Counted from the whole stretch's first letter, positions 1,932 to 43,795 are shown. The stretch is 56,876 bases of DNA, filler included, from Sluysia triapertura (GCA_046118255.1; 4 parts of 4 records of this genome joined end to end with filler, not necessarily neighbours in it); one strand, 5' to 3'. A program made the numbers and translations. The notes: generated by a model not told the origin, from the letters alone.

Positions 1932-2616
1932 TGGATTGACCGGGGATCGAATCCGAGATCTCTTGCTTCGCAGTTCGATGAATTTAACACATTTATTTCA
2001 ACAGAGAAACAAGTTGTACATATAAAATATAGATAATCAAAATATATGTATAAATATAAATAAAGATAAATTGTGGGGATCATAAGAAGGATTGTTACTG
2101 TTAGTGACAAGAAAATGTTAATAAAAATGAAAAATGCTGCATAAAAGTTGATGTATAATGTGAGTAAACAATATACGTGTCTCACAAACATTCAATGAAA
2201 TTGATAAGCAAATAAAGTGGCTATGATAAATATAATGAAAGACAAACATACAAAATAATGATACAGAAAATGTGAAGGGGAAGGAAAAATACATTTAAAA
2301 AATGAGGAAAATACATAAACTGAAAAAAAACAGAAAACGGAAGAAGACAAGAAAAAGGGTAAAGATAAATGAAGAATTCAATGAAGTGGAAATATGTAAA
2401 AGAAAAAAAGCATTTTAAATTGTTTTTGTTTTATTTATTAAAAAAAATAAACACTAGGATGAAATTAAAATAAAAGACTGCGGAAATAGGGAAAAATAAA
2501 ACAAATTGATTAAATTATAAAGGAGAGCATAAATAAAGATAAAATAAAACACCCAGAGTAGGATATAAGAAATCCGCCAAAGGTGAAAAACAATTTGCAA
2601 AACAATACGGGTGTCC
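1932..2616 (-). pseudogene. tRNA-like copy interrupted by a 632-bp insert (1981-2612)
   Basis: 1932-1980 matches the 3' two-thirds of the 31790-31861 gene including the TTTT-ATGAAGTCTAA tail. Homology resumes at 2613 (gtcccgtctaacaatt...agtcaat) and continues into the shared upstream flank. Confidence 0.75.
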
Positions 2617-2808
2617 CGTCTAACAATTTAATGTAGTCAATATTATACATGGCACTTTAGGCCTTCACCCCAACGCATATAAGAACTCTTAGATTTTTGT
2701 CGTTTTGAAATGGATTTTACAGATCTTGATTTAGTATTAATTCTTTCACTACTTTAGCTAGTATGTCTCATATTTTTGCTATTGTTCTATTTTTGTTATT
2801 ATTCTGTG

Positions 2809-2858
<50 letters not shown>

Positions 2859-3395
2859 GTTCTTTAGTTATATTATCTTTTTTTCAATCTTAATAACGTT
2901 AAATAAATTTTATTATAATATATTTTGTTATATGCATCATCGCGATAATATAACTAGTTTCTAAAATAGTATTCGTTATGTATGGTTTGTATTAGTTTGT
3001 ATCTCTATTTTATCGAAATATTCGACCAATACTTCTCGACTTACTAATTAAGCTCAAATTTCCTTCAAAACTACTTAGATATTTTTTAAAATCATTAAAA
3101 ATCATTAGTTTGATTTATTTTTATGAATTATTTCAACGGATGAATTAAAAATTAATAATTTAAAAAAATTTCAGTATTTATTTATTATTTTATGACAATT
3201 ATATTATTAAAATATAATATTAAACCCTTAGTATTTCCAAACTCGAAATAGCTTTTCAAATAAGGTTTCTTTCCTCGAGTTCAAGGAAATCGTAGAATTT
3301 TCACACGTTTGTACATCTTTTGTACAGTTATTTCCTAGGTAAAGCCACGTGGTTACAAAAGCTTATAAAAGAGGTATTTATCACAAGAACTAGAC

Positions 3396-3772
3396 CATTG
3401 GTCTTCACACTTTTTGTACTGCGACCCACTTTACGAGTCCAAATTTTCACGCAACCCCTAGGGACCAAAATAAAAATAATAAAGTAAATTTTTTAGCACC
3501 TAAAAATTAAAATATATTTAATAATAACATAATAGAATGTACTCTTGTGGAGACTGATTTTTGCATTAAGAAAAAATTTATTTATTTTGTCGTCTAATAA
3601 TATCAATAAAATAAAATAATAATTGTATTAAAAATTATTTAAAATTAAACTTCTCCTATTTAAAGAATATTTTCTTATGAATACTTTATTATAACTGTGA
3701 AATTTCTCGTAACCCCAAAAAAATTTTTTGCTACCCACTGGTGGATCGCGCCTCGCCTTTTGAAGAACACTG
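3396..3772. mobile_element. hAT (Charlie-like) MITE
   Basis: Termini CATTGGTCTTCA / TGAAGAACACTG, 8-bp TSD aactagac/aactagat (7/8), subterminal GCGACCC-type motifs. Confidence 0.85.
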
Positions 3773-6476
3773 AACTAGATAATTGTCAATATCGATTAGT
3801 ATGTATTAGCTATAATAATAATAATATCTAATCGCAGATTATACCTAGTTGAACTGTAATTTGTGACACATTGTAAGTATATTGGATTTTTTCATTATAT
3901 TAAATGCAATAATTTAAATAGTAATTTTATATATTTATTTAAAATATAAATGTGTCTATCTCAATTCTAAATACACATTAAATATAGTAAATATAAATAT
4001 ATTTAAAATAAAATATTGTGAAGTCTATATTTATTAATTAGTTATATTTATATATGTGATAGTTAAATGAGATGCTTAAATAATACCAAAAAAGACAGAA
4101 GAATAAATAAAGTTTTAACTTTGAAAAATTTATATATAACAATTTATTTATAAAAATATCAATTAATCTACACTTCGTGTGTAATCGAATAAAAAACATT
4201 GATACCAAATGAATTAATAAATGTAACATAACTTTCTATTTTATTATTTTTGTAGTTATGAAATTATGCACATCTTTAAACAATCAAATTATTATTATTA
4301 TTAATATTATTATTATTGTTATTATTATCATTATTATTATTGTTATCATTGTAATTATTATTATTATCATTATTATTATTGTTAGAATATAAATGGAAGT
4401 TGTTATGATTTTATAAGATTTTATGTCTTTGATGATGACTTCTACTTTGCTTGTAGGTGTTAAGATTATAACTTGAGTTTAAGATGGTTATTCTAACACT
4501 AATAATACTACCTGGATGTTACTGTTCACTCGTCTCTGGTGTAAGAGATGGAAATGTAGCTTTATTTGATTAAAAATCTCTGTCCTCTCCTTTTAACTAA
4601 ATGAAATAAGGTAATCGAAACACACTAAGGTTAATTTATCAAATATAAATGCAAAGCCAAAAAATTTGGATAATATTCGCAATATAAAATAAAATACCAC
4701 ACGTAGTTATATTTTGGGTGTTCGTGAATATTTTAAAACTATGTTTACATTTAACACTTTAATTATTTTAAATGTTATTCTGATAAAGATAAAATAAAAA
4801 ATATTTAACTGTTAATGTAACTCAAATCATAAATGCCTTCGATAAAAATCTTTACTCGAGCTGCAACTGAATATCTTAGTCTCTTCTCCAAGTAACACTT
4901 GAAATCTCCATTTTTGAATAATAATAATTATACCTTCTTCTTCTTCAAATAATAATTGCACCTTCAAATAATAATAATTTCTCCTTTTTGTTGTTTCTTT
5001 AAATAAGCTTTTTTGGACTAATAGTTCTTCTTATCTTTTTGTAATAGTAATTTTATTATTTTTATTTTTATTATTTTAAATTTATTATTTTTTCTGCAAT
5101 TTAATTTATTTATTATAAGTTTATTATTATTCTCTACAATGTATATTGATTATTATTTTTTTCATAAAATAATAAACCTTTAATAATAATAATAATGAAG
5201 AAAATGACAATAGGCTTTTGTTATTACTTTTTATCATTACAATGGATACTTTTAACTATTTACTATAATGATGATATTAATAGGTTTTTATTTTTACGAT
5301 ATGTGCTTTTATTGACTATTCGCTTTTGCAGTGGTCCTTTGTCATTACTTTTATCATTATTCTATTACAGTCTCTTAGGACCATTGTTCTTTAGAATATT
5401 ATTCTTGTATTAAGTATTTTATTTTCTAATTTATTTTAAATTTTGATTTTTTGTTTTTGAATTTTAAAACGAAAATTTTTTAAAATATTAATTTAACATA
5501 ATAATATTAATTCGATAATATTAAATTCAACATTATCATCATTAAATTTAAAAAACAATTAAATTTACAATGAACCTTATTTAATTGAAGTCTCAAAATG
5601 TCATAAAAAGTAGTTGCACATACACAAATATTTATATTCCATTTTTAAATCCACCAATTTCTTATTTTATGAATTGGCGCCTTTTATTTATCATTTATAC
5701 ATTATATAATTTTATATAAAATTATACCTCATTACACATCACTTTTGTTATTTATTTATTGTATTTATCAACATTTTCAAAAAAATCGATCTTTTAAGAC
5801 AATGTTAATTAAAAATGTTTTAAATTACAAAAAAACCATTATTAGAAAATACATATATAAATTTCACAACTACGCTTTAAAATAGTTTAACAGTACTGAC
5901 ACTTTTGATAAAAATATTATTGCATTTTTCATTGTTTCATGTAAGTATTCTAATAAAGAAATATCAAATATAATGAATACTTATTAAGACTTATAATTAT
6001 GAATTTAATCAATTTAATAATAATTATAATTATTATTAAATTATAAATTATTAAATTATGAAAGCCGTCATTTGCTGCAACATATTGTAAATATACAAAT
6101 ATAATATTATGCAAATACAAAGGTCATTTTGGAGTCATTAAACAAAGTTATTAAACAAAGGTCATTTTAGTCATTTTAAAGTTAAAGTTATTAAGTTAAT
6201 ACAGATTTTGATTTTAAAGTTATTAAAATTCAAATATAATATTAAAGTTTTCATTATAGTTATTGGATTAAATTTTAATTGTTGGAAATTTTATCAAATT
6301 AATTAAAAAATCGAATTAATTAATTCGTATAATCGAACCAGAGTAAAATCAGCTTTATATTATTTTCAAAATCATTAAAATCAATAAAATCATCTTGAAG
6401 CCCTAAAATCTTATTTATTAAATTGTTAAATTATTAAATTATTAAATTTGTTTTCTTGCATATAAGTGATAAAAAT

Positions 6477-6525
6477 CCAACGGTTGGCCATTAAGTTTGT
6501 AAGTCCAATACGTTGGTGGACTCAC
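6477..6525 (+). repeat. Bulged stem-loop motif, subfamily 1
   Basis: CCAACG GTTGG CCATTAAGTTTG TAAGT CCAAT A CGTTGG TGGACTCAC. Confidence 0.85.
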
Positions 6526-6874
6526 GTTTTATCTTTATTTTATTTTATTCGCAAAACTCGTAGAAACCTTGCAATAATATAAAATGTAATACAAAAAAAT
6601 TAAAGATCATTACGATTTGATTATAAAATCATTAGTTCTGTTTATTTTATTACTCTGTTCTGCAATATCTTAATTTCACCCGACTGTTATTAATTTATTA
6701 ATACATTTATATTCCTTTTTGAGTTATTATTTAATAAAGAAATTTAATAAATAATAATAATAAAATAATTGAATAAAAATAAAAATAATTTAATATAAGA
6801 CCCTCTAATTTATTTAACAAGTTTTAGTTTAAGTTAAAACATAAATGTTTTACATTAAGACTAGCTTAGAGTTT

Positions 6875-6925
6875 GTTACAGGAACGCCATCTGTACGATG
6901 TTTACTGTAACCGGGTCCTGCTCAA
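6875..6925 (+). repeat. Bulged stem-loop motif, subfamily 3
   Basis: GTTACAG...A CTGTAAC CGGGTCCTGCTCAA; the inner stem is degenerate. Confidence 0.7.
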
Positions 6926-7308
6926 TTTTTATTTTTGCCGCAAAAATAAACTTTTTTCAATGTATAGCCCGCGGGCTATAGGCAAGAAAATGCGGTATAT
7001 TATTATCGATTATAGTTACATTTATAACATTATTAATTATATATATTATCAATATTATTTTTCCTGGTAATATTAATGTTAGGTTGTCATCATAACCCTA
7101 CAAAATAATTTTAAGATGCCATGATGGCACCTTAAAGTTATTTAAAACTATTTAAAATTATCAAAAAATTTAGTAAAATCATAGAAAAGGTTTTAAAACC
7201 ATTTATTAATCTTTAAAATTACTTAAAACAATTATTTTCTAAAAACTAAAATAAAATTTCTAAAAAAGAAAATTAGCTTCTAAAAATAGAAAAGAAGCTT
7301 CTATAATG

Positions 7309-7366
7309 TTCTAGAATATTCTAGAACATTCCATCGATTTTCTCTGGATGATGACTAGTATATAAA
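7309..7366 (+). promoter_or_regulatory. Heat-shock-element array followed by a TATA box (possible solo-LTR promoter)
   Basis: TTCtaGAAtaTTCtaGAAcaTTC (five alternating nGAAn units, 7309-7331) and TATATAAA at ~7359-7366. Confidence 0.5.
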
Positions 7367-7849
7367 TTAGCATCAATACAATGAAAATCGCCATTTGTAA
7401 ATCACTGTTGTTGAACAAATTCACAATCATTTTGGAATTTAGTTGATTTTTGTACCCAGCAGACAATATCCGATTCAAAATCCATGCTCCAAGTAATCTG
7501 TTTTTATTAAATTGATAGTAACTTCATCGAAGGAAGCTAATATCTTAAAATACACTTAAATTATTATTTTATTTAGTAAAGTTTAAGTTTTCCCGGATAT
7601 ATTGAGGGCTAAAATACAGAGAAAAGTTTAAATCTAAAAATAAATCTAAAGTTAAAGATGACATTAAGTTTCAACTTTAATATATTTAACTATGCTTTTA
7701 TTTCTATCACCTTCTTTTATTTTTAGAATTTTTTATTATTTGACCATTGTAATAATTAATAAATTTTTATTAATTGAATAATTTTGATTTCGTTTATTGC
7801 ACTATCTAATTTATTAGTTAAAGATATTACGTTTTAGTTAACTCATATT

Positions 7850-7907: not shown

Positions 7908-7980
7908 TTTTCTATTTATCTTTATGTATCAGTAAAAACCACAGCATTAATATAACGCTATTAATTTTGTTAAATTACAA

Positions 7981-9461: not shown

Positions 9462-10553
9462 TCAATGAATTTCATGAAAATTTCTTTTGGTGTTGGATTT
9501 ATCAATAATTTCTAAAATATTTCCAATAGTCGAATAACAATTATTAAATAAATTATTCATGTTATATTTTAATTTCTGTGGAGATTTAGGTATTTCTTGT
9601 GTATGAATATTATTTTGATTAACATTAAGGCAACTTGAATATGTATTCGTACTAATATCATCGTCATGCATATCAAAATAGGTATTTCTTGAAAAGCTAT
9701 AAAAAGTACTAATATCCCTCGAAGATAACATATTATTATTATTTGACGTTGGAGCATCTGATTCATTATTGTCCGGACCAGACATGTCAACTTCTGCATT
9801 GTAGCCTTTATTTTCTTGAACTTCACTAATTTTCGGTACACTTTGTTTTGCTTTTTGTGAAACTGTTGAAGGGAATTTATTAACACCAGACATCTCACCT
9901 TCTGCTTTATAACTAATATTTTCTTCAAATTGACTAAATTTTGGTGCACTGTTCTTTGATTTTTGAGAAACTTTTGAAGGTAGTTTACTAGCTTTTGGTG
10001 ATTTATTACTTTCACCACTAGTTTGTGTTTGACTATTTATCAGCTGAGCTGTACTTTGGCTTGATCGCTTTTCAGTATTCGTTCTGCTTAGTAATCTCTT
10101 TAGAAATAGTTGAATTTCATTACCAATATCTTCTTTGGTTAACTGTTTGTTACTTTCTTGTTTCTTCTTAACTAAATTATCAGTGAAATTTTTAAATTCA
10201 TCAATTATTTCTGATACTGCATGATCACTTTCCGCGCGTATTGATCCTCCTTGGCTACCTTGCTTTTGGCATACTTCTTTTAGTAAATTTACAATAGTAG
10301 AACAAATTTCTGGAGTAATATTCGAATTTTTCGTTTCACTTACTTTATCAATCGGACCATTAGTTATACTTCTTGAATGATTTGGCATTTCATTATAATT
10401 ATAGCAATCGAGATCATCATTATCTCTTATATAAGCCAAATGTGATTGTAATAAGCATATTAAATTATCAGACATGCATTTGAGATTTTGAAGGCAACTT
10501 TCTATATAATATTCATTTAATTCTCTGGTTCGACTTTTATCTAAATAACTCAT
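9462..10553 (-). CDS. Intronless orphan ORF, 363 aa, S/N/K-rich, with a tandem ~36-aa internal duplication
   Basis: Longest ORF in the window, uninterrupted in very AT-rich DNA. Repeat KLPSKVSQKSKNSAPKFSQFEENISYKAEGEMSG / KFPSTVSQKAKQSVPKISEVQENKGYNAEVDMSG. AATAAA about 70 nt downstream. No family recognised. Confidence 0.7.
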   Translation of the reverse strand: MSYLDKSRTRELNEYYIESCLQNLKCMSDNLICLLQSHLAYIRDNDDLDCYNYNEMPNHSRSITNGPIDKVSETKNSNITPEICSTIVNLLKEVCQKQGSQGGSIRAESDHAVSEIIDEFKNFTDNLVKKKQESNKQLTKEDIGNEIQLFLKRLLSRTNTEKRSSQSTAQLINSQTQTSGESNKSPKASKLPSKVSQKSKNSAPKFSQFEENISYKAEGEMSGVNKFPSTVSQKAKQSVPKISEVQENKGYNAEVDMSGPDNNESDAPTSNNNNMLSSRDISTFYSFSRNTYFDMHDDDISTNTYSSCLNVNQNNIHTQEIPKSPQKLKYNMNNLFNNCYSTIGNILEIIDKSNTKRNFHEIH

Positions 10554-12150
10554 TTTAATGCTCTTTAGATCATACTTTAAATATTAATAATTTTTTCTAT
10601 AAAAAATCAATATTTAATTAATATAATTTTAAATTTTTTATATTTTGTAAAATTTTATAAACTAATTTAATTTCATTTTATATCTATGTGCATAAATTTT
10701 AGGGCAACGTTTTTATTTTTAATCACTTTGTTGAATTTAAAAAATTCAAGCTTAATAATATTCAATAATTAAATTCAATACTTCGATTTCTTCTTCAAAC
10801 GATTCTGAATACTTTCTTATGTCAATAAATTAATATATACTTGTAATAATTAAACAATTAGGCTTTCAATACAAATTCTGTAAAACGGTAAATGTCTTTA
10901 AGTTAATTTATAATAGATTCCCAACTTTAGTCAATACACACCTCAGTTCTCAATAATACTTTAAAAATCTTCACTTATATAAATTAGTGTTAGTCAGAAA
11001 CAACCTAAACTTTCTATCGTTTTAATATTCAATTAATGCTTGCTTATTCTATGCAGAAGTCTGAGTTCTGATGCTCATTCCGATGACCTGGAATGGAAAC
11101 GCAAATAAGTTTTTTTGTTTTATTTGCGAGGATACTCGACTTTGATTTCGATCGTTATATGAATAAATATTATTTTGTCTCACTTTATTTTATTTTGTTC
11201 TATTTTGTTTTATCCTTCCTTTGGGTTCTCTCTTTCTACTTAACAATTAATTAATAAAGCAATAAATTCACAAAAATTTTATTCAACAAAGATTTAAACA
11301 CTTAATAACAAAATATAAAATGACGAATAGTTTAATAATGATAAATTTTAATATTAATAAAATGCAATCTTTTAATTTTTCAGACAAAAAAGGAATAATA
11401 ATTACCGTGACGTTCAATGTTTGGTCCAGTTAATAAAGTTCAGAATACTCGAACGAATTCCAAAATATGTGTGAACTAGTGTGTCAAATTCTGTATCAAA
11501 TACTATGTCAAGTATCTGTCAACTTTTAAAATTCTGTGTACTATTGTCCCGGACTTTTAGCATATGCATAGGAAAATTCTACCGCACTCAAACGGTTAAA
11601 TTAAAATATTCAATAACATGTTAATTTTTATACAATAAGATGTTAAGGCAAATTGCAATATTTCTTCAATTTGTTATTTCGATAATTGCAATTCCTCTTA
11701 GTTTATATTTAAATGTGTTTTGTTTGAATACGTTAAACAATGCAATTTGCACCAATTTTATATTGTTCTATTAATCATGCTATAAAAGAAATTAACAAAA
11801 CAATTTACAAATATATTTATGGTACTGAAATAATTTCTATTACGATCAATGCAATTTATAACTTAAGGTCAAATACGATAAGTGATTTGTATGTCTAAGA
11901 CGACTGTTTATTCGGAATAAATATGTCATTCATATGTGTAATTGTTATCACACTAAGTTCACTTTTACCTGTTATTTATACACAACATCTTTTAAAATGA
12001 ATACTCGTACATTTGATATATCAAATGATATAAAATTTTATGATGAAACATCACCTCCAGGTTCTTTAAAATGTATAGTTTTAGAAAATGTAAATGAAAG
12101 AATTATATAGGTGTGATTTTTCTAAGTTTTAACCTACGGCAAAATATATT

Positions 12151-21629: not shown

Positions 21630-22396
21630 CAATATACTCTCAAAATTTGGCCAATTTTAGAAAAAAAATTTTTAAAATCAATAGAAACCTAAATTTGTCC
21701 AAATTCTGCTTTTGTCCAAAGATCTTTAGATTTTACATTATATGAATTTATAATTTTAAAAACTTCAAAAAGAACGCAAACACAAATTTTTAATTAATTG
21801 ATTTATATAAATAAAAAAATGTTGAGCCGTAATGAGAAAAGAAAGATGTACAACATTATCTGATAATGAAAAAATTGAAATTTTGAAATATAATGAGTTA
21901 TATTCTTTACTTTCAGACCGAAGAATAGCGGACATATTTTCGGACATATTTTCATTTAAATGTAAAAAAACAATTTCAATTAAGTCAATTAATAATTTGA
22001 AATTGAACAAAAAACAATATTATTGAAAAATTCGAAGATACATTTTTGATCAAACCTAAGGAAAGGGAATTAAAGTTTGGAATTATTGACAATTGTAAGA
22101 TAGAATGGGTAGATTATTCAGATGGTGCAATATTGGCAGATAAAATAATGACTGAGAAAGCTTTAAAATTTGCAGAAATTCACAATGTAGAAGAATTTAA
22201 AGTTTCGCATGGATGGTTACGAAAGTTTAAGACCAGACATCATCTTGATCTTAAAAAGTTACATAGGGAAGCACAATCACATTTAAATGTTAATTATGGT
22301 GATTTCAAAAATATTCTTCAAAACAGAATCAATGCACATGAAACCGGAATTTTCTAAGTTTGCAAGAAAATGTTACGTGAAGAATAAAATTACAAG
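21630..22396 (+). mobile_element. Tigger/pogo (CENP-B-like) DNA transposon, 5' part, decayed transposase
   Basis: RCTTLSDNEKIEIL (psq-type HTH), KALKFAE...EEFKVSHGWLRKFKTRH (CENP-B HTH), INAHETGIF (degenerate NxDETG). TA-flanked TIR-like start near 21630; truncated by the hairpin element at 22397. Confidence 0.85.
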
Positions 22397-27117: not shown

Positions 27118-28600
27118 ATGAAAGTTGTAATGAGGATAGATGGAACAGAACAAAAAATAGAAAATGAATTTCGTGTCGGAGTAACAGTGTCATCTCTACA
27201 GGATTTCGTAAAAACTTATTTGAATACAAGACAAAGAATAAGTTTGTATTATAGAGGAAGAGTATTGGACAGAGATTATGGACTATATTTAATTGATTTC
27301 GGATTCCCAATAAATCATCTAAGCAATGATGATGAAATTCAAATTAGAATAGGATCCCAGATTAACCATAATGCGCGGAACAACGGAAAGGCAATCACAA
27401 TCCGTTAATCGTGATTTTTTCCGTGAGGTATTTAGAGAATTATCAATAAAAAATCAACAACGAGAAAGATTACTACCCAGACGAGTACAACCAACTCACT
27501 TATTCGAAGAAACATATTATATGATGAAGCGAAGAATAAATTGTAAAAATAAATTTTGCATAATAGTAGAATTTAAATGAAAAAGTTATAAAGCATTATT
27601 AGATACAGGAGCAACCCATTCAATAATTAGATACCAAATTTTGACACAAGAAACGATGATCATACCTCATCGTCGATCAACTATAGCTTCTGTTACTGGC
27701 AATCAAATTATTTTTATAGGAAAATTAGAAACAGAAATTTCAATTTCACGAAAAGTCATTAAATGTGGAGCTAGAATACTCAAACACTGTCTATACGATA
27801 TAATAATCGGAATGGACATAATAGAGCAAATTCCGGAGATATTAATACAAAAGGGAACCGAACTATGGAGTAGAAAACAAGCACTCTTAAACGAAGAAAG
27901 AATACTAATGCTCCACAGAAGAGAACCAAGTCCACACAAACATGATAATTTATATGAATAATTGGAAGACGCGCTGAAATATCCTGTAAATGCAATGAGA
28001 TTTAAAGTCGTAATCGACATTGTTTTGGAATCAGGGGAGTTATACATGAATACTCACATCTCAAACACCGATTAAATGAAATCGGTTACCACGTCGAAGA
28101 GCAAAATATACCAACTACTCTGTGATATAAGAGATCATGAAAGATATATATAGGAAGATTGATTAAGGTAAAAGTAAGAGTGGAAGGGCAAAACATGATT
28201 TTAGAAAAGAACTTTGGTATTAATAAAGATATAGATTTGCTAAAATCATTTGTAGAGGCTCGAGCGGGTGTTTCCGAAGAGATCGAATTTGCTTGAAGAT
28301 ACATAATTACCAGATTATGGATTCCCGATAGAGTTTTTTAACCGTTCAGAATGAAATTATTGCAATAGTAAGAAATAATGAAAATGATGTTTCCTATAAA
28401 ACAAACTCTTTAACCATTATTTCGAAATGTGGAGAGAAAAAGAAATACAAAACCAGAAGAGACCGATTTCTACCGCCACGAAAAAGTAAACATTTCTATA
28501 TGGTTCAGGATAAAGAAAATCATAATACCTTTTTATCAACAATCGGATTCAATGGAAAGAAATATACAGGTCTAATCGATACAGGTGTTGCGTCTTTAAA
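27118..28600 (+). pseudogene. Tandem duplicated ubiquitin-like domain + retroviral-type aspartic protease (Ddi1-like architecture), disrupted
   Basis: Unit 1: UBL-like TVSSLQDFVK...ISLYYRGRVLD...LIDFGFPI, then K*KSYKALLDTGATHSII...YDIIIGMDII (DTG 27602-27610). Unit 2: IKVKVRVEG...LLKSFVE...LPDYGFPI, then RDRFLP...GFNGKKYTGLIDTG (28578-28586). Contains stops and frameshifts; cut by the gap at 28663. Confidence 0.7.
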
Positions 28601-28962
28601 GCTTATCAAATATCAAATTCGCTATTAAAATCTTATTTAGTTAAAATCTTAATAGTTTCAATNNNNNNNNNNNNNNNNNNNNNNNNNNNNNNNNNNNNNN
28701 NNNNNNTTAATTAATTAANNNNNNNNNNNNNNNNNNNNNNNNNNNNNNNNNNNNNNNNNNNNTCATAAAATCGATTTTAAACTTCATTGCCCCTAAACTA
28801 CTACTTTTGTTATTATTAAATTATTAATATTTTTATATTAAATTGATATTTTAAACTGTGACTATTACATAAGAACATCAATATCAACACTTGAAGTTAA
28901 CATTTGGAAATATTAAAACTAAAAATTTTTTTTGTGACCTCCATTTCATTTTTTAAGAAAAT

Positions 28963-29011
28963 CCAACGGTTCGCCATTGAGTTCGTAAGACCAATACGTT
29001 GGTGAACTCAC
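28963..29011 (+). repeat. Bulged stem-loop motif, subfamily 1
   Basis: CCAACG GTTCG CCATTGAGTTCG TAAGA CCAAT A CGTTGG TGAACTCAC. Confidence 0.85.
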
Positions 29012-31500
29012 TATTTTAAACTTTATTCTACACGTACTTTTCTTGCAAATACCTTTTAGACGGCTGAAGTAACAGAGGATTCAGCGGGACAATATGAGGA
29101 GTCGCGGAGATAGATTCATTGTAGATACTAATAATTTCATAGGTCTCAGATGGTGTGGGAGAAATTGTTTGAGGCGGAATATTAATAGGATCAACAATAG
29201 TAGCAATAGGAGGAAGTTCAGAGGTAGACGCAGTTGGATCGTTGTCAGTGGGGATTAAAGGAGGTGTGCCGTTCAAGTCGATGAATTAACAGCATTAGTT
29301 GTTAAGTTATTAGAAGGGATTGGGTGGAGAAGCCCTTTGTTGTGTAGGTGGTGTTTGTTGGTACCATCACAGCAAGGTTAGTAATAGGGGTCAGTGGGAC
29401 TTGAGGATTATTGTACCGAAATGGTTTTTTCTTCCAGTTACTTTTTTGGAAAATAATTTTGTGTCCATTGTTGTTCCTAAGTCCAGAGACTTTAGGATTC
29501 GATGTTTTAACAGACGCAGTTTTAGGACCTGTGTTATTAATATGGTTAGGCGGCTTAGGCTCGGAAGTTGTCGCATTGGTATTTCTTGGCACCCTATAGA
29601 CGGGGGCTTTAGCAATCTGAGGTCCCGAGACTTTAATATTCTTCCATTTAGTGATTACGAGTTTGTTCGATGTTGGCTCTGTACTCATCTGTTAAACAGC
29701 TTGGGCGAATATAGGTTTAATGTTGGTCCACTGAGGGATGATTGCTTTTGGCAGAGGTTGATAATCCGTTGTGGTGATATGTTAAACTGTTTGTTCTGTG
29801 GGACAAGCCGAGTCTATTGTTTAACATGTTGGGACTTTGATTCGAAACCCCTAGGACCAGATTTGACTGAATTTTTAGGGAAATTAGGTTCCGGCCTCAA
29901 GAAGCAGCGAATTGCTCGTGGATCTATGTCCATAAGGAAGTGGCACAAATCTAGGGCCTCCAAATACCCACAAATTATGATTCCGCATTCATAGAAATTG
30001 CTCTGAAGTTTAAAGGGGAAAAGTGCCTTTGCAAGAAAAGTAATGCCCTAATGTCAAGAAGGAAATAGATGCGCTGTGAAAGCCCTTTCCTTACCACATT
30101 GGTAGCTTTATTGTTCTTGCGACGCAGAAGGTCAACGACGTAGAAAGATCCATCATTGACATAAATGACATAAGGAAAAATGAGATTTAATGCAGATTAT
30201 TGCACAAATCGTAGGGCAGCCTGGGAGGTACCCAAGAATGGAACGTTTGAAAAGAATGGGATTTTTATGGTATTGGTCACACAAGGAAGTAACGAGAGCG
30301 ATAACTGGGCAACGAAGACAAGTGAAGAATGACTCTATTTCTTCTTCATAGAGCAAAAGGACCACCAAGAAGCGTATTTTGCGACGTGGGAGGAAAGAGA
30401 GGGAAACAGCAAGAACACAGAATAAAGATGATAAAAATGATTAAAATATTTGGACTACATGAAAGAAAAATACATCATGCACACATTTACAGCTCAGACA
30501 TACACAGAAAAAGGTTGGATCAAGCAGATTAAAATTAATAAAATAACGTTAGCGGCAGCAGCAAGAATGGATCTTCGTGAGCCAGGGCCAAGACCCTGGA
30601 AGAGAGTACTCGAATAGTCGATCGATCTTCGGTCACCAATTTTTATCCAACATTTGAAGACCCACCTTCGGTTTCCAAAAATGCAACAACAGTGGTAGAA
30701 CTAGATTTGTCATCCACAGTACTATCTTCATTCCAATCAGGAACAACTACTGTCTGGCAACCACGAGCAGCGAAATCTCCATCGTCTTCTTCGTCTTTGT
30801 TATGTTCTTCATAAACTGGATTTTCATCTTTACCATCACCTTCTTCATCATCTTCTTCTTCTAATTCATCCCCACCAAGGCTTCTTCATGAGCAGCTGCA
30901 TCTCTAGTACCACCTATACGTTTTCCCCTCTGGATGGGGTTTCAATATTATCGGTATCATCATATTCTTCATCAGAATCATAAACTTCGTCTTCACCTTC
31001 ATCATCATCTCCAAAGGCATTTTCAGCATCACCAGTATGTTGTTCCGCCCATGCTGAGGTTTTAGTAGCAGGATCGGTATTAGTATCAATATCATCATCG
31101 TCGACTGAATCATCCTCTAATTCATCTGAATATGGATCTACACCTTCTTCGGGATCACTAAGAACAGCATCTGCAACATCTTGGTCATATTCATCATTGC
31201 TTCACAAGGATTAGGCACATAAATGAATGTGGTATCTAGCGCAAGTGAGAGATAACTCGCATCATTTTCTTTTAAAATGGCATTGTTGTAAGTACCATCC
31301 ATCCATGCTGACCTGGAAGGTAACTGGGGATGACCATGAGGAGGTACCTCAACCAATGATCTGACAATGTTCGGCGCAGAGGTATTGTGCACTCCGGAAA
31401 AACTTTCTCAGAGTGACAAAGTGCTTTCAAAAATCCGACATCAAAGAAAAGTTCTTTCATGTGTATTGGCATTTTGTAAATCATTTCATATAATGTCACT
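29012..31500 (-). mobile_element. Decayed higher-GC element: acidic N-terminal region plus a Ulp1/SENP-like (C48) cysteine protease, frameshifted; NeSL-like or other Ulp1-carrying transposon
   Basis: Across frameshifts: IICIKSHFSL (His 30180-30182), VIYVNDGSFYVVDLL (Asp 30131-30133), FKLQSNFYECGIIICGYLEAL (Gln 30003-30005, Cys 29985-29987), the His-Asp-Gln-Cys order of C48 proteases. D/E-rich segments at 30700-31140, P/T/N-rich tail at 29030-29690. Confidence 0.65.
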
Positions 31501-31789
31501 TATTAAACGCACAAAGTATTAAGAATAGACGTCTGTGACTTCAATGTAGAAAAATCTTATTGGAATATTGTGTATGAAACGTGAAATTTTCTTCAATTTC
31601 GGACATTACGATTTCAATAATAATTGTTATATAGGGTTTTTAGATCAATTAAATAAATTAACCTAAAAACAAAAATATAAACGATATTTTTGAAAATTTT
31701 GAAAATTAGACAATCCATGCCATTTCCACATAAGAACAGTGTAAATTCCGAAAACATAAGCAATGATCAAACTGTTAGACTTCATAAAA

Positions 31790-31861
31790 TGGACTGACCG
31801 GAGATCAAACCCGGGACCTCTCTCTGCGCAGTTCGATGCTCTACCACTGAGCTATCAGTCC
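31790..31861 (-). tRNA. 72-nt tRNA-like gene (Ala/Cys-like body, unpaired anticodon stem); intact copy
   Basis: GGACTGA-TA-GCTC AGTGGTA GAGC-A-TCGAA CTGCGCA GAGAG-AGGTC-CCGGG TTTGATC TCCGG-TCAGTCC-A then TTTT. Acceptor stem, D-arm and T-arm pair, and A/B boxes and a Pol III terminator are present. The anticodon stem does not pair, so it is probably a pseudogene or tRNA-like ncRNA. Confidence 0.75.
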
Positions 31862-31939
31862 CGTCTAATAATTTTTATTTTATTATAGTCAATATTTATT
31901 ATAGCCTTTTTACCCCAACAAAACTACCATCCATAAGGT

Positions 31940-32498: not shown

Positions 32499-33649
32499 TT
32501 ACAAAGACGATTTAGACGCTAATATTTCTTTTAAATTTTCATTCATATCATCGACCATTTTCTTGACCGAATTGGATAACGTTAAGTAGTCAGATTCGAG
32601 CGATTTTGTCGATATGAATTCACGCATAACATAATTGTTTTGTTCCAAATGTTGCCACTTTTTTTCCAAATTAATTAATTGAGTATAAGTGTCATTGTCT
32701 TCTAGCTGAGCACGTGATTTTTCATACTGTCGTGCCTGAAATTGGTTTTGTTTTTTCATATATTCACGTCGCTTATTTAAGTATTCTTTTTCTTGGTGTA
32801 GCTGAAGAAAAGTATAATATTCTTAATAAAGTAATATAATAATAATCATCATTATTTTATATGTCGATATTGATGATAAAGTAAATTTAAATGGCATAAA
32901 ATCATTTGTGAAACATTATAAAATTTCATAACTTTCGTAACTCTTATTTTAAACTATTTTTAAAAAATATATGATAAATATAATGTAATAACTGCAAAAA
33001 TAAAACTTCGTGTAGGACTTAAGTGACTTAAACATCGAGTAAGCGATGGTTTAATCTAAAACTTATGGAAAATTAATAACTGTCACTAGCAATGAGAAGG
33101 GATAAAGATAAGCGATTTGTTTTAATTGTGAATCATTCTCACGTCTATTGAAAGTGTGCGCTATATATCTAAGAATAGAAATGCGATAAATATTGTGATG
33201 AATTCAATCCAAAAACATAATTATCATAAGCAAATAACATACAAAAATCAGAAACTCAAATTCAATAAATTTTCACAATAATACTTTAACAAAACAGAAC
33301 AAATATTTTATGAAAATATTACTACATTCTAAAACGGAAAACGAAGGATTTTTATCTACTTTTTACAGTCACTAATGAATTTGTTCTATAAAATAAACTC
33401 ATTATTATTTACTTTCTATAGTCAACTTACATATTTAAAGGTTTTTATAAGAAATTGATTTTTTAATAGTGTGAAATTTTCATTGTTATTAAATTATAAT
33501 TTGTCAATAAAATAATCAAAATATTATATTTAAAATCGACCTTTTTCTTACACTCATCTGACTCTCGTTTAACTAGATCTAGATCGGAAAATTTAAGAAT
33601 ATCTTCTGTCATTTGAGCAATTTTCTTTGTCAAAGCTATTTTTTCCTGA

Positions 33650-34702: not shown

Positions 34703-34739
<37 letters not shown>

Positions 34740-37700
34740 TAATTAAAGTTATATATTAATTATGCATTAGTTTGAATAGAATGTATTCATCAATTAAAAT
34801 AATTCTCTTAGTTTTGTACGACTAATAATTTGAGAAATTATTCGATATATCTAATGATAGTCTTTGTTTTTGTAATCCATTAAAATTTAGATATCATTTT
34901 TAAAATGGATTATGAGAGCATATCTTCTCTTAAACATGCAAATTTCAGCATACATCAAAATCGTTAAAACCTGCCGAATCCGTCCTATATCAATGTTAAT
35001 GAAAAATAGATCAAGCTGAGATAGTATCATATGTATGTGTGTATGAAGTTATTGTGGCGGCCAACCTTATCATCTAAAATTTTATCACATTATAATATAT
35101 ATAAAACCTAGTAACTTTACAACATCTTAACCATAAATTACATCAAAAACCATTAAAATTGTATTTTAAATTCAAAGTTAGTCATAAGTTAAATGGAATT
35201 TCTTTTATCGCCTTTAACTACGTTGTTATTTTCTTTTAATTTTCCTTCAACAACCTTTGTGTACAATTTTATAATTTTTATTAATAGAAATATTTTAAGA
35301 AAATTAAAGAAATAAAAGCAATGCCATTTAGTTTGGTGTTTTAAAATAAATTTAAAATGCTCATTTAATGATTTTTGATATTATTGATGCTTTTAATGTT
35401 GTAGGAATGTGAACTTTAAAGTGTTTTGATATATTTACAATTTTGAATGATAACGTTGGCCACCACAGTTATATTGTTAACTGTCAGAAATAAGATAAAC
35501 TTGGATTAAGAAACGACTGATGGAAAAAATACCAAATCGGTCAATAAAACACATTTATAAAGAATGAGAATTCAAAGATAAGAGTGCTGTCGAAGAACAG
35601 TGAAGGTATTATTCGTAACCAAAACGATTATTTCTTCAAAGATGACCACGTTTCATTAAGTTTGTAGTATTAATTTTAAATTTTTGAATAAAATCAATGA
35701 AAGTATTTCTAGAATATTAACACTTAAACCGTTGATAGATTTATTTTGCCGCCTCAATACTTTATGAATTTTCAAAATTTAACTTGTTAAAGAAAAAATC
35801 AGTATAAATTTATGACGTATTCGCTTACTAGAGAGGTAGGAATAACAAGGGTATCGTGTTACAAAGTGCAAAATACGTAGCCGGTAGTTTAGCGACCATG
35901 CATTTAGTACTCGGCCGGACCTTGAGGTGTTATTTATATTGAACTACAAATAATCACCAAATAACTAAATAGAACATTTTAAACCTATAAATAATATTTA
36001 ATTATTAATAAAGTATAACCCAATGAATTATAATGATTTAGAAGAAGAGCTGATTAAAATGAGTAATGAGAACAATTTAACAATAAGAATGTTAGGTTAA
36101 GCTAAATTATAATATGATCTCATTAAAATTTCATTTGGTAATTTTATATTTTAATTAAATATGTTGTATTATATTATTATTTTTTATTATTTATTTAATT
36201 AAACGGGGGGCAGTAAAAAAAAGCTTGATCCAAAGCCATTTTTTTATGAGTTTACATATTGGATATATTTTTCCCTTAAATGAATTTTTCCTATTTATTT
36301 TAAATAATAGTTATAAAATATTTAAAAAGAATGTCGATGTACCACAATGAAGAAATCTATGCAGATGATTTAGAAAATTCTGAAGATAAAGATTTTAGTG
36401 ACATTTCAGAAGATAGTGATGATTCTGAAATTATGCCCGACACAAAAAAACATAAAACTAATCAACCTCTTGATCAACATCTACTGATTCGGAATCGAAC
36501 ATAAATGATGTTGAAAACGATTGGTCTCAAAGTGACAATGAAGCATGTCTTGAACAATTTTTGGTAAATATAGGAGTTACTTCAAATTTCGAATTAAAAA
36601 AGCAAATAAGTGACGATTGTTAAAGTGTATCTGCGATTAAAATAATAGGCTGTCAAATTTTAATTGTGAGGTATTATAAAGACTATTTGTGTTTTATGTA
36701 TGTTGTTTGGTTATTTGATATTTTGTGTTAGATTGCGCTGAGTTTGTTTAAGATTTTATTTACAAGATATGTGCTGGATTATGTTGATGTTTGCCTATGA
36801 CTGTTTTTATCTTGAGCTCACCATATCTTTATCATTCGATTTAAATTTCCTAAATATTTTATTCTCAACCATGGAAACATTACTTTCTCAATCATTACTT
36901 ACACTGCTTAGAAAAAATATTTAATTACAAAATTTTTAATTGGTCAATAACTTTTCAATAATTAAAATGTAGAATTATTTTCAAAATTTGATATAAACTA
37001 GAGTTTTTGAAACTTTTTGGAATGCGGAACCATTCAATGCGTCAATATCAGTTGAATAGTCAATGTCGAACATTGAAAAAACTTTAACATTTAATACTTA
37101 AAATCTTATTTAACAAATAAAAAAGGAAGCACCGAATCTTTAGAGTCAAATACAAAGTGTAACAATATTACTTAATATATTATTTTATTTAAATATATTT
37201 ATTTAATTAACGATATGTCATATATAACACTTTGTATGACGAAACAAATACAAAATAACAAAACCGTATTTAATTTAGTTTCCATTTGATCGATTTTGGC
37301 CAAGTCTTGCGCTACTTTGGTACGTTCAGCAGATAAAGTTATTACTGTCTGTTCAGACTTTGATACCTCACTCGACTTAAAGCTTAATCGATCTTGTATT
37401 TGTCGAAGTTCATCTTCTGTTGGAACATGACCCATTCTGGACATATTACGTGATAACTTTTCAAGTAATGCTGTGATTTCATTTTCCAGATTATCAAGCT
37501 TAGTTAATTCAATTGTCTAATAAGTTAAAATTAAAATTATTATTATTATTTACTCGATTCTGTTCAAAATTTTCCAAAAATTTATCAATTTCTTCCTCAC
37601 GCTTTTTTAAATCACGGTATTTCTGCATTTTCTGACCTTGTTCATCTTCGATATCGCGATCTATCAACATCAGTTCATCGTGAAGAATATTTAGTCTATC

Positions 37701-37745: not shown

Positions 37746-37809
<64 letters not shown>

Positions 37810-39217
37810 TATCATATTCGAAATCAAATACTTATAGAAAAGGCTTTCTTAAAAAATCATACTTTTCAAGAATCAGTTGAAATACTCTAAATCCGTTCTT
37901 AATCTTTTAGGCATGACACACTTCAAGTAGATCGTGATGTGTAAAAATAAAAATTAACACCACATATCTACTTTCATTTAAAAGTAACAAAAATAAATAA
38001 TCCTTTAAAATATGTTCACCAAATTATCCAGTAATTTATTTGGCCTATTTATAATTCAAGACAAACAGTTTCATTAGGTTTTGTCTAAAATTAAGAACAA
38101 GTAAACCAACGTTAATAAAATAATAATCTCAGCTAAAATAACCTAAGACAAATATCGTATGTAAATAATTACTTACTGTCTCTCAATTGCTGCAATTTCT
38201 ACATTATCATCTTTAACTTGTTTCAATAGTTTTTCTCGCTCTAGTTGTGGATTACCACGTTCCTTTTCTTCTTCCAGTAATTTATTACGCTTCAATTCTA
38301 CTTCCGCTAATTCATTGTACAATTTCATAGCTTGTTGTTTAATCTAAATATTGTATTTACAAAAAATATTATAAGTACATAAGACTGTTCTAATTCTTCT
38401 TCTAAATCTATTTTACAAACACGTAATTTATCCAAATGTTGCTGCAACACACCTGATCTAACTAAATAATGTGCATTTTCTTCTTTTGCTCTTTCGTATT
38501 GATTTTTCATATCTAAAGGCATATTACTTACTAAACTCTCAGCCATTCTTCTTTCCTATAAATACTTTAAATCATCTTAATGAAATTACTTGTTCTAATT
38601 CAATTTCAATCGATTTTACTTGACTTTCTTTAGCATTTTTATCTTCAAATAAATGCTCTAACAGCCGCTCAGCTCTGTCATTAGATACTTTAATTTCTTC
38701 AAAATCGATTTCAAGAGACTTAATATCACCATTCATATTCATTTTATCCACTAAAGTATTATAATCACCTAATTCGCCCTACAAAATATTATCTTACATA
38801 TATTCTAAAATACCTGTAAATTCTTAATTTCCAATGCTAATTTTTCAGCCATTTGTTCATATTGTACAAAACTTTCATTTTGCTCCTGTACGTCAGACAT
38901 TTGCTGATTTAATAAAGCTAATTCTTTGCTAATCTCATTTATTTTTCCTCGTAATAAACCTAAATAATAATTTTTATCTTCAATTTGCCGTCGAGAACCC
39001 TTAGCCGTTTTTGGACCCCCAATTCCTATAAAAATGTTTATTTTATTTTATTTTATAAACCTTGTTGTGCTATAATACGATCTTCAACTTTAAGAGATTG
39101 ATTTAAAACTGAACTGCCAACTAATCCACCTTTTGTCATTGGTCTTTCCCCAGTAGTTAATCTACTAGCAGTACCAATCTGACGAGTACCAGCTGTAGTA
39201 AGACGCTTTGAATTCAT
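32499..39217 (-). CDS. IFT74: Intraflagellar transport protein 74 (IFT74/CCDC2), complete 9-exon gene, 574 aa
   Basis: Manual splicing at GT-AG sites gives exons 39217-39061, 39025-38814, 38778-38590, 38555-38379, 38343-38177, 37716-37554, 37516-37265, 33645-33541 and 32801-32499 (1725 nt, open frame). The translation has IFT74 motifs: [124 protein letters not shown]. Confidence 0.96.
33714..34682. mobile_element. Tc2/pogo-type internally deleted DNA transposon in IFT74 intron 7
   Basis: TIRs CCGTGTTTCTCCGAAAATAAG / CTTATTTTGGGGAAACACAG, TA on both sides, inserted into a (TAA)n tract that continues on both flanks. Confidence 0.85.
35053..35467. mobile_element. TG...CA MITE with long imperfect TIRs and 5-bp TSD (Ginger-like)
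   Basis: TGTGGCGGCCAACCTTATCAT / ATGATAACGTTGGCCACCACA, GTTAT duplicated at 35048-35052 and 35468-35472, arms inverted over ~150 bp. Confidence 0.75.
36331..36600 (+). pseudogene. piggyBac-like transposase N-terminal remnant
   Basis: Acidic N-terminus (DDLENSEDKDFSDISEDSDDSE) followed after a frameshift by NDWSQSDNEACLEQF...IGV, a pattern resembling piggyBac N-termini. Confidence 0.4.
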
Positions 39218-40339
39218 TCTATTTTTATATTTGTAAAAGTATATATTACAATAAAAAATAAAAGTGATAGCAATTTAATCATAAAATAAAAAATACAGGT
39301 GTTATACAATTATAATACTTTTTTATTAAAACTTAATAATTGACAATAATAAATAAAATATAAAAATAGTTTTAAAGGTTTTAGTAACCATAGTCCTTAC
39401 TGTGTTAAATATATTGCATGATTAAAACGAAATTCTAATTTGTTAATTTATTACTTCAAAACACTTTAATAGAATGTTTGTTGCTGTAAATTTGGTTAAG
39501 TTTTTCAACTTTGTTATATGTAGTATTGTATTAATACCATAGGAACAGTAATCTGAGTTCGTGAAACAAAGTCAATCAATTATTAAATTTAAAAATTCAT
39601 TGTTGTAAAAATATTTTTGGGATTGTTAAGATTACATAAACAAGTGTTATATTAACTTTATACATGGAATACATGTGCTGAATGAAAGAAAATTAGAGTT
39701 TGCTTTACTATGTGAAAGAAAGTTTTACAGAAAATGAGAGTAATATGTGTTTTTTAATTTCAAATACATCATCATCATCATCATCATCATCAATTTCGAT
39801 GAACATTTCCCAATGAGATCGTAGTTCTATTCCACTGCTGTGAAGATCTGGATTTGTGTAATGTTGATTTGGTAGCATCTAATTTTGAAATTCTTCATTT
39901 TCTAAGAAATGTTGCTTAAAACAAAATGCATGCAGCAACATATGAAAGATAACTAGGATGTAGAAAAAATTTCAAACTAAATTCTGTTAACATCTCGGTA
40001 TAACTTTTATGTTCCATATCATTAAATTAAACCTTTTCCATTAACCAATGCTTGCCGAACATTTAACATTTTCTTGTGTAAGCGATGTAATTACTAGAAA
40101 TGGATGTCAGACGATATATAACCGCTCAACACAAATAAACTCGCAGCCACTGAAATACATGCGCACAGCGGTCCCATAATTTCAAAACGTGTTGCGTAGT
40201 GAAAGAGTTATTGTTTCATATCGTAGGTACAGGTTTTTCTTTAAAAATTTAGCTATATTGAGGATCTCTTTATTTTAAATTATTCTTATCTTGACACAGT
40301 TACACTAAATATATTTTATTTAATGTAATCGATTATTGG

Positions 40340-40680
40340 GATTCCTAATTGTGAATCAGAAAATGTAGGAGCTATAAGATAAAGAGAGAACTGATGGATT
40401 GAAAATTATAAACATTGTCGAAATAAGAATCACGAAAGTAAAAACATCTATAATAATTTTAACAGCTAAAGAATACCTTGGCATTGAGATCTTGTGGAAG
40501 CTTGAAAAGGATTTGGAAAACCTTTGAAGGCATTAAAGTAGCTTTGAGCTTGTTAATCTTAAGATCATGCCAGACCTTGTTGACCTTTAGGTATTCTTGA
40601 AATCTTTACAAACATTGGGGATCTTAGAGTAACTGTATCAGTTATTTAAAATCTTTAAAATATTTCAGAAATAAAATCTG
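40340..40680 (+). repeat. Dispersed decayed coding repeat of unknown family (copy 2 of 3)
   Basis: gaaataagaatca...taacagctaaa.aata.cttggcatt...aaaacctt shared with 53237-53570. Reads IINIVEIRITKVKTSIIILTAKEYLGIEILWKLEKDLENL. Confidence 0.7.
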
Positions 40681-43446
40681 TTCAAAATAATAAATGTAAA
40701 GTAATTTTATGTTTTTTGTTGAATTTATTTTATTTCAAAATCAATATTGTTATTATAAAAAATAATAGATTAATAAATTTAATAAAATTAATAAAATTTA
40801 AGAAAAATTTAATAATTATTAAATTTAAGAAAATTAATAAATTTAGGAAAAATTTAATAAGACAAAAATTTTAATGAATTAATAAAATTTAGGAAATAAT
40901 AAAAAATGAAATAATAAATTAAATAATTAATTTTTATAATTTTAAAACTTGAAGAATTTTGTTTTAATAAATTAAATAATTAATTCTAGAAGAATTTGTT
41001 TTATTTAATCAATTTAATATTTAGAAGACATNNNNNNNNNNNNNNNNNNNNNNNNNNNNNNNNNNNNNNNNNNNNTTAATTAATTAANNNNNNNNNNNNN
41101 NNNNNNNNNNNNNNNNNNNNNNNNNNNNNNNATTTAGATTTCAATAATTACATATTAGTATTTGTTTATATTATTATATGTTATTATTATATGTATGTAT
41201 GTTGACATTTATGAATTAAAATATTAATTAAAATTAATATTAATTATTTATTAATTAAAATTAATATTAATTTTTTATTAATTAAAATATTAAATAAATA
41301 ATTTAAAAATATTAATTTATAAATTTTTAGTAATTTTATAAATCTTAAGAAAATGGAATTCAAATGTTTTCCAATATTAAATCATTAATTTTAACAAAAT
41401 AAAATATTATGTAATTGTTTGATGAATCAATTTTATTTTTAAGATGGCTGCCACATTGTAAATTCACTATAAAATGGGTGGATTTTCAATGTGAAAGTCA
41501 ATAACGGAAATCAATCATATCAGAAAGACAAATTTAAAGATTCCATGAAAAGTTATATCATTATTTTTAAGTTTTGAAAATCTTCATTGTTTCAATTCTT
41601 CAAATAATTTCACCGTTTGATCAGATGGAATTTAAGTTAAATATTTATTTACTAATCTCGAATCAAACATATCGATATCTTTAAATTATTATTAACTTCA
41701 TAACTTATTTGGAAAGGTAAAGTCTAGTTTCTTCGTGATCATCAAGGAAATATAAAATTAATCCTGAGATTAAAGTATTGCAATATAGCAATATTTTAAT
41801 TAATATTGTCCATTTTCCTAATATTTCTATATAATAAACATCATCATTTGAGTGATCACATTTTATAGGTTGGTTTGGCGATTCTTCTTTAAAATTTGTT
41901 GATGTAATTGGTCGTACTGTCATGTCGTGATCGTTAGGTCTATGATTGATATGTAAGACATGTATCGATGATTTTGACTTTCTTTTGAAGTCTTTGATAA
42001 TAATATAAACTTTATCATGATGAGATTTAAAGCAGCACATGATTTTTAAATTTTTTTAAAATTGATGAATAAAATTACGCCTGAACATTACGTTTAAAAA
42101 TTGTGAATGAATATTGTGATTACGTTTGGTTGCTAAACAAACTAAAACCCAATTTCCAAATTTGTACGACCAATAAAAAAGCAACTATTTTGTTGCTAAC
42201 ATCATTTAATATAAAATTTCAATGAAACAAAACTATCAAAATTGACAGATTAAACAACTAGTAATAACATTAATAATAATAATATGGATAATCATAATGA
42301 TAATTAATAATAATGTTTAATTAAAAATACAAATAATAATAACAATGAAATAAAATTAACAATAAAAATAATATTAATAGCATCAATAATAATCCTTATA
42401 AATTTTTATGCTTCAAATTCACACCAGTTATTCAACATACTCTCAATAAAGTCTTGAATCTCCTCGATAGAAGTGTTACAATATTTATTTTCTATTTCAT
42501 CGTTTATCTTCGTTTTCACATCTTCGTATGGTATATTTTCTTCCAAATTAGTTACACATTTAGTTGCAGTGTCGCCATTTGCAATATCATTGTTTTCTTT
42601 ATGGTCAATCAATTCATTTGTATTTATCATAGTATCAGAAACTTCTTTATTATTCATATCACTTTATTCTTTATTAATGCTATCGATTTTCATTTTTAAA
42701 TTCATTTTTAGTACTGAAATTGTGCTCAGTTTACCGTAATCTTTCATTTCGATAATTTCGTTATAATCTTTTCTATCTTACTCAGTTTAGTTTCTACTAT
42801 CTTATTGTCTTCTTTTTTATTATCCTGAATTTGAGTAAAATTATTCTGGTTATGATTATTGGTTACATTTAGATGTTCTTTCGCTTGATATTAAATGAGT
42901 TCTGGATTCTGAGTAAGGGCAGCATAGTAAATCACTGGTTAATGAAATATTCGATAATAGTTGAATCACATGAGCTTGTTTAGAGCGAGTAGAAACATGG
43001 ATAATGAATTAGTAATGTGGAAGACGATCTTCTCGTTCGTTGTTAGGGAAGGAAGAGGAGGTAGCGTAAAAACAAAAGATAAAAAATTATGAAAGAGTGT
43101 CGTGAGAGAGTATTAACAAAGTTAAATGTGTTAAAAGAAATTCCATTTAGTTTGTTATTTTTTGAAATTTAAATTACAAATTTAATGATTTTTGATGTAA
43201 TGAATGCTTTGAGTGTTGAAAAAATGTGATTTTTAGTGTACTGTGATGTATTAAAATTTTGTATGATTACGGTAAAATCCTGTGCATAAGCTGCACATTA
43301 TAAATTTTTTTAAAACGATCTTTTTCTTTAGATAAGCCGTGGTTTATCCATGGAAACATAAAATTTGAATAATTTAAGCCTCATTTAGATACACACTTAC
43401 ATATGTCAGTTTAATGATTCTTTTTAACTTTATAAAGGTCATAAAA

Positions 43447-43795
43447 TGGACTGACCGGGAATCGAACCAGGGCCCTCTCCCTGCATAGTTCGATGATTAT
43501 GATTAAAACATGTATTAATATAATAGTTTTAGTCTCTTTCTCTTTTTTTAGAGAAGAAAGGTAATCTTCCTTCTTCTATTCAGGGACCTTGCAAAACATA
43601 GTCACGGTATGCGTTGTTCGAGGACTCCACAGCTAGTCGCACATACTGTCTTGTGGAAGCCAAGTGCCTTGAAAAGCCTGTCAATCTCGTGATCCCATGA
43701 CCCCAAGGTTCCAACGACGAATGTATCCAGAGATACCTTGCACTTCAGTTGTCCTTTAGTTTGTCCTGGAGATAGCATACTGAGCTATCAGCCCC
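43447..43795 (-). pseudogene. tRNA-like copy interrupted by a 283-bp retrotransposon fragment (43496-43778)
   Basis: 43447-43495 is the 3' part and 43779 onward (actgagctatcagcc) is the 5' part; 7 nt (GGTAGAG) of the D-arm are missing at the junction. Confidence 0.8.
43496..43778 (-). mobile_element. 5'-truncated 3' end of an RLE-type (R2/NeSL/Utopia-like) non-LTR retrotransposon
   Basis: Minus-strand translation of 43778-43602 includes VSLDTFVVGTLGSWDHEIDRLFKALG, then after a frameshift YVRLAVESSNNAYRDYVLQG*. The VVGxLGSW motif is typical of the C-terminus of restriction-like endonuclease domains in R2/NeSL-group elements. A short 3' UTR follows. Confidence 0.75.

Follow-up and report, generated by a model that had tools for sequence, protein, structure and literature searches.

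A tRNA-like cassette within a high-copy LTR-like repeat of Sluysia triapertura as the likely insertion site of a putative RLE-type retrotransposon

Here we describe a mobile repeat of ∼150 bp and a retrotransposon fragment inserted into it, both found in a 56,876-nucleotide (nt) stretch of DNA from Sluysia triapertura (GCA_046118255.1; four parts of four records joined end to end with filler), referred to as the window. The repeat is present in high copy number, carries a tRNA-like cassette, and is likely the solo long terminal repeat (LTR) of a Helenus-type terminal-repeat retrotransposon in miniature (TRIM). In many of its copies, a single base of the cassette D-arm appears to be the insertion point of a non-LTR retrotransposon, likely a NeSL-clade element with a restriction-like endonuclease (RLE), of the LIN type known from planarians. 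We consider this reading probable, with site-specific target-primed reverse transcription as the most likely route of insertion.

Three copies of the tRNA-like sequence, all on the minus strand, were identified by BLAST with the intact copy as the query, and the coordinates given for them in the original prediction proved right. The search returned a 73-nt self match (copy 2, the intact sequence, at 31790-31861), two 3' halves at 1932-1980 (copy 1) and 43447-43495 (copy 3), and a 17-nt 5' piece at 43795-43779. Both 3' halves start CATCGAAC, placing the 3' junctions with inserted DNA at 1980/1981 in copy 1 and 43495/43496 in copy 3; given that a unit is interrupted, the chance of two identical 3' junctions is ∼1/71 to 1/147. 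The break had been predicted to follow GGTAGAG. The common 3' junction is indeed exact, but neither broken copy retains GGTAGAG, so the sequence on that side is deduced from copy 2. Homology restarts past each insert with variable target loss, as had been claimed: the 5' part of the cassette resumes at 2613 in copy 1, with 19 target nt lost, and at 43779 in copy 3, with 7 target nt lost. Homology among the copies reaches well past the 72-nt cassette, by ∼60 nt on its upstream side and by 17 nt on its downstream side. Because the 3' parts are only 45 to 49/57 identical between copies, the copies are taken to be old and independent.

The interrupted sequence had been regarded as a tRNA gene, and this part of the prediction was not upheld. 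The cassette of copy 2 (31790..31861, minus strand), recognized by Rfam and by stem pairing, scored 42.5 bits as a tRNA in Rfam, but the match omits the anticodon arm. Pairing is complete in the acceptor stem (7/7), the D stem (4/4), and the T stem (5/5), whereas the anticodon stem forms only 1/5 pairs in all three copies, and ARAGORN called no tRNA genes; a functional tRNA gene was ruled out on these two grounds. The A box is present (TAGCT and TGG), the B box is degenerate (GGTTC in one copy and one change from it in the remaining two), and TTTT follows the cassette. Rather than free tRNA genes, the three sequences are cassettes of a mobile repeat, and the target is a nonfunctional cassette within a high-copy LTR-like unit.

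The unit that carries the cassette lies on the minus strand in each case. Copy 2 (31773..31920) is intact, solo-LTR-like, and 148 bp long, runs from TGTTGG to CTAACA, and is bounded by an exact duplication of GTTT (31921-31924 and 31769-31772). Copy 3 consists of a 5' part from TGTTAG to the A box (43779..43868) and a 3' part beginning with CATCGAAC (43442..43495) that falls 12 nt short of the unit end; it is flanked by TGTC (43869-43872) and TGAC (43438-43441). Copy 1 has a 5' part that ends after cassette position 4 (2613..2675) and a 3' part that starts CATCGAAC and ends CTAAGA (1915..1980), between TATG (2676-2679) and CATG (1911-1914). The 4-bp target duplications therefore match at 4/4 positions in copy 2 and at 3/4 positions in each of copies 1 and 3, with a joint chance of ∼1e-4, uncorrected for the choice of boundaries. 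Ends of the TG...CA type are complete in copy 2 and carry one change per end in copy 1, and copy 3 lacks the last 12 nt. An internal inverted repeat was also observed in the unit: a stretch resembling TGTTAGAC that lies just ahead of the cassette (31863-31870 in copy 2) pairs with the unit end GTCTAACA (31773-31780) and extends the acceptor stem, and the pair is present in copy 1 as well. Copy 3 is itself nested in another repeat, as seen from self-matches (43114-43271 and 35069-35455) and empty sites, so that three elements are nested at this locus.

Abundance was assessed with contigs from a public sequencing run (X1), which contains 0.54 of the words of the window. Alignment at 80% likeness on 43380-43900 gave 5,315 matching contigs. 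Summed depth, which is not a copy number, was 2.6e5 to 6.4e5 on four bins of the cassette. It fell to 4.9e4 and 3.1e3 at the junction or where copy 3 diverges, and depths of 11 to 27 were recorded for the 8 long pieces listed. These values point to thousands or more of the units and hundreds or more of the insert copies. Uninterrupted units are common, since 331 contigs at the 5' junction read on as intact cassette. In 180 contigs the unit terminates at CTAACA, beyond which the flanks are mixed (agreement, 0.54). Of 136 joints, 15 were listed; among these, the three from 43439, 43441, and 43442 to 43873 (5, 5, and 4 contigs) bypass the whole unit and represent empty sites of the surrounding repeat.

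The unit resembles the Helenus TRIMs, including TRIMp3, in several respects. In the accessible part of the work on that group (PMC10886601), its members are noncoding, under about 1.3 kb, and built of two LTRs with a site for primer binding (PBS) and a polypurine tract (PPT); their short LTRs hold a tRNA-like, probably nonfunctional sequence with conserved A (TRGCY, YGG) and B (GGTTC) boxes, and solo LTRs and, in animals, 4-bp duplications are found. The apparent copy number of the unit is near or above the largest figure given there, 5,575 LTRs (PMC10886601). Of five unit motifs sought in the supplement of that work, four were unmatched and a generic A-box motif occurred four times, the two matches listed being from fungal families (PMC10886601). 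From its ends, boxes, and duplications, the unit, present in the window as single LTR-like copies, is likely a member of Helenus.

The insert of copy 3 (43496-43778, minus strand) is 283 bp long with 41% GC. Its coding end (43580..43778) is 5' truncated and frameshifted. The peptide FVVGTLGSWD, encoded at about 43721-43692 in the same orientation as the tRNA-like cassette, belongs to a longer peptide that includes VSLDTFVVGTLGSWD, with a predicted strand followed by G.W and then, across the frameshift, a helical tail that stops at 43580. The R2 endonuclease is described, in the part of the source available, as having an RG.W motif after beta-strand 4 (PMC4838377). By eye, the LG.W of the insert falls at the R2 RG.W position, and only the part from about beta-strand 4 onward is left; the coding end is likely an RLE C terminus. 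The peptide, its orientation, and its 5' truncation were thus read correctly at the outset, and the RLE label was not confirmed by any search. The frame is likely a NeSL/Utopia-type C terminus. Downstream lies a 78-nt 3' untranslated region (UTR; 43502..43579) that ends ATGTTTTAAT and has no poly(A); it is here that most contigs depart from the window sequence. Six extra nucleotides (43496..43501) form a tandem AATCAT duplication across the 3' junction that is absent from the plurality junction of other copies.

Next, the 3' flanks of other copies of this insert were examined. Run X1 contigs were placed on 43487-43562, which covers the 3' end of the insert and only 9 nt of target; 217 contigs were placed, 89 of them only partly. 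The largest group of loose ends (43/217 contigs) departs from the insert at 43505, and its plurality continuation is TTAAT|CATCGAAC, which is cassette sequence through the 30 letters shown (agreement, 0.53). Under a rough model in which agreement is assumed to be mean per-letter identity, 30 to 50% of the 43 contigs are in register, where random flanks would give <0.004 such contigs. Contig counts understate copies with a common flank, and because such copies collapse into few contigs, the share of copies with a cassette flank may exceed the share of contigs. The insert itself is repeated (summed depth on its body, 7.5e3 to 3.7e4). At the window's own 5' junction the depth drops to about 314, compared with about 12,000 adjacent to it, so this junction is not common to most copies. 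The AATCAT duplication and the rare 5' junction agree with a truncated insertion of independent origin and not with amplification of a composite. A search of metagenomes with the exact junction pattern gave 0 matches. The contig flanks support a site preference of the copy-3 element that extends beyond the window. The original prediction of an RLE element specific for a D-arm site accordingly survives in its site preference, although not in its tRNA-gene target or, as a confirmed label, in its endonuclease type.

Retrotransposons of this kind are known, and the tRNA-associated NeSL-clade precedent invoked in the original prediction exists. In the accessible part of PMC4640811, LIN15_SM of Schmidtea mediterranea (NeSL clade, R5/LIN lineage) targets tRNA-Arg, LIN25_SM targets tRNA-Glu, and NeSL-1_TV of Trichomonas targets tRNA-Pro; LIN families are placed in the NeSL clade, with transposons among known targets, in the part of PMC5035012 at hand. 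LIN15_SM is the closest parallel to the copy-3 element: it is co-oriented with the tRNA, sits in the 3' strand of the D-stem with a precise 3' junction, and ends in a short AT-rich 3' stretch that lacks poly(A) and, judged by eye, looks similar (PMC4640811). Its site, ATAAG|GCGTC at positions 23|24, is one base away from the site here, which is 24|25 in our own numbering (PMC4640811). It differs in that its listed targets are functional tRNA-Arg genes, whereas the target here is a nonfunctional cassette in an LTR-like repeat, and in that its one listed 5' junction duplicates target, whereas target bases are lost here (PMC4640811). LIN25_SM, another tRNA-targeting planarian RLE element, also occurs in tRNA-like stretches of Polinton-4_SM and is a partial precedent, but its site is tRNA position 4|5, the transposon that hosts it is a DNA transposon, and such targets are a minority of the junctions listed (PMC4640811). 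NeSL-1_TV is likewise tRNA specific, and a short stretch of target is deleted at its 5' junction, although it inserts into the T-arm of a genuine tRNA gene (PMC4640811). RLE peptide motifs were absent from the 10 supplements of that paper (PMC4640811) and from the paper texts searched. The copy-3 element works like LIN15_SM, and its membership of the NeSL clade is likely. No RLE element targeting a tRNA-bearing LTR was found in the literature searched (as listings, apart from the papers cited here; Repbase and subscription journals excluded), and the accessible part of the Helenus work does not report an element that targets the tRNA-like cassette (PMC10886601).

In the mechanism that we propose, the endonuclease would nick the strand opposite the sense strand of the cassette at GAG|CATCG, and the 3'-OH of the nick would prime reverse transcription from the 3' end of the element RNA, from which the exact 3' junction would follow. 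The 5' truncation and the loss of 7 nt would stem from early termination together with a variable second cut. A Gypsy-type integrase would have dispersed the unit, whose cassette would act as an RNA polymerase III (Pol III) promoter, and the element would gain thousands of dispensable targets.

Several points weigh against this interpretation. The genome-wide evidence comes from one public run, possibly of the source sample, whose kind is unrecorded, and the loose ends at the 3' end of the insert are known from 6 of 26 groups. An agreement of 0.53 means that many junction contigs differ, and the second group (6 contigs departing at 43506) has another or mixed flank. For other copies of the insert, the flanks seen were all 3' flanks. 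The reverse transcriptase (RT), CCHC, and PD..D motifs fall outside the fragment, and no RT was found in it or in Pfam scans of 120 window frames. For the 58-amino-acid (aa) frame of the insert, Pfam gave no match to an RLE, and there was no match among longer proteins, proteins of near its length, or phages; PDB sequences gave only two chance matches (E values, 0.78 and 1.8), and pattern matches were confirmed for 0/26 in viral contigs and 0/533 in metagenomes. An Atlas search returned only unnamed clusters (0.93 to 0.95; eukaryotic where recorded) with recognition below threshold, a second gave scores under 0.9, and the structure model of the frame was unusable (pLDDT, 44). A two-LTR copy, a PBS, and a PPT were all missing from the window, where the three units are single. 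Finally, the 632-bp and 283-bp inserts are not homologous (best local scores, 22 to 23); that one family hit the cassette twice, as first proposed, was not shown, the inserts being unrelated in sequence.

The insert of copy 1 (1981..2612, minus strand) is 632 bp long, with 25% GC and 52% T on this strand, and has no recognizable coding. Similarity between the tails of the two inserts was not significant, since 4,375 of 112,046 background 20-mers (3.9%) score equally. These features would suit a break in copy 1 that arose by coincidence or repair, with no relation to a retrotransposon, but the 3' junction that is the same to the base, the 5'-side target loss of the kind seen in target-primed insertions, and the lack of a duplication at the insert ends speak for a related event, and we regard coincidence as possible but doubtful. 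The 632-bp insert is probably a different RNA or family that used the same cut. Candidates are a second family, of which it would be the long 3' UTR, and an RNA copied in trans at that nick, with chance as a further possibility. The 5' break of copy 1 (2612/2613) falls at cassette position 4|5, which is the LIN25_SM site in the part of PMC4640811 seen (S6 Fig). The 19 lost nt span the LIN25-type to the LIN15-type site, and two site-specific cuts may have been involved.

Three further explanations concern the copy-3 element and the unit. The element could be a LIN15-like specialist of real tRNA genes, for which LTR cassettes with the same D-arm are bystander decoys; the mechanism would be unchanged. 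LIN15_SM does use tRNA-Arg D-arms, and LIN25_SM is found both in real tRNA genes and in the Polinton-4_SM stretches (PMC4640811, in the part consulted), yet the plurality 3' flank is cassette-type sequence with the broken anticodon stem and cassettes apparently number in the thousands, which leaves this explanation somewhat unlikely. We think it improbable that the common junction arose by amplification of one old insertion, in which either the LTR element or read-through transcripts bearing the 3' half of the cassette would have propagated a composite. Passengers could be carried by the unit, which is mobile, and outside the window only 3' junctions are visible, but the rarity of the window's 5' junction, a plurality flank that differs from copy 3's own, the position of the copy-3 insert between two halves of one unit that has a duplication and empty sites, and the different insert at the same junction in copy 1 all argue against it. 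The 148-bp unit might instead be a SINE-like repeat (short interspersed element) or a Ginger-type miniature DNA transposon whose ends are TGT…ACA. The single copies without PBS or PPT, the internal inverted repeat, and the four family-specific motifs with 0 occurrences in the Helenus supplement (PMC10886601) would agree with such an origin. Against it, the terminal inverted repeat is only ∼6 bp, as in LTR ends, the ∼60 conserved nt ahead of the cassette are unlike a SINE head, and the 4-bp duplication is the animal Helenus value (PMC10886601, as far as seen). We judge this alternative unlikely and retain the solo LTR as the likely identity of the unit.

The remainder of the window is animal-like, with GC of ∼24%. 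The accessible part of a Dugesia genome preprint describes planarian GC as low and mentions no such repeat. Host exons of IFT74 (32502-32822, by protein match, to fish proteins only, at 52%) and of a bicarbonate transporter (SLC4; 46876-47148, by frame scan) lie on the minus strand. Mobile-element remnants on the plus strand include a Tc5/pogo transposase DNA-binding domain (22007-22354, Pfam) and a retroviral-type aspartyl protease (27581-27958, Pfam RVP) with a second protease-like motif recognized by eye (28332-28625); both protease pieces are likely decayed Gypsy pieces. A block richer in GC (29000-31400; 34 to 38%), with a 226-aa frame at 29314-29991 on the plus strand and acidic frames on the minus strand, had no Pfam match and is probably an unclassified mobile element directly downstream of copy 2. 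A 373-aa open frame at 9465-10583 (minus strand) gave nothing above the Pfam cutoff. For 48681-49049, a possible assignment to PICK1 gained no confirmation.

We tentatively propose that a tRNA-targeting RLE lineage moved its main target from tRNA genes to a TRIMp3 LTR, at the cassette that would serve as its Pol III promoter, a pool of sites replenished by another retroelement; each insertion would split the A box from the B box, and the site may be used by more than one family. Because both ingredients have precedents, the surprise is moderate. The accessible part of the Helenus work lists six animal phyla, flatworms not among these (PMC10886601), and if the host is a flatworm, Helenus-type elements would extend to a new phylum. 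In such a genome, thousands of tRNA calls may be LTR cassettes. The arrangement would add a natural RLE specificity, relevant to R2-type insertion tools, and suggests a route by which site-specific retrotransposons could change target, through a recognition sequence common to tRNA genes and a transposon promoter. One genomic parasite apparently uses another as a landing pad, with thousands of harmless sites at which insertion would disable the promoter of the host repeat.

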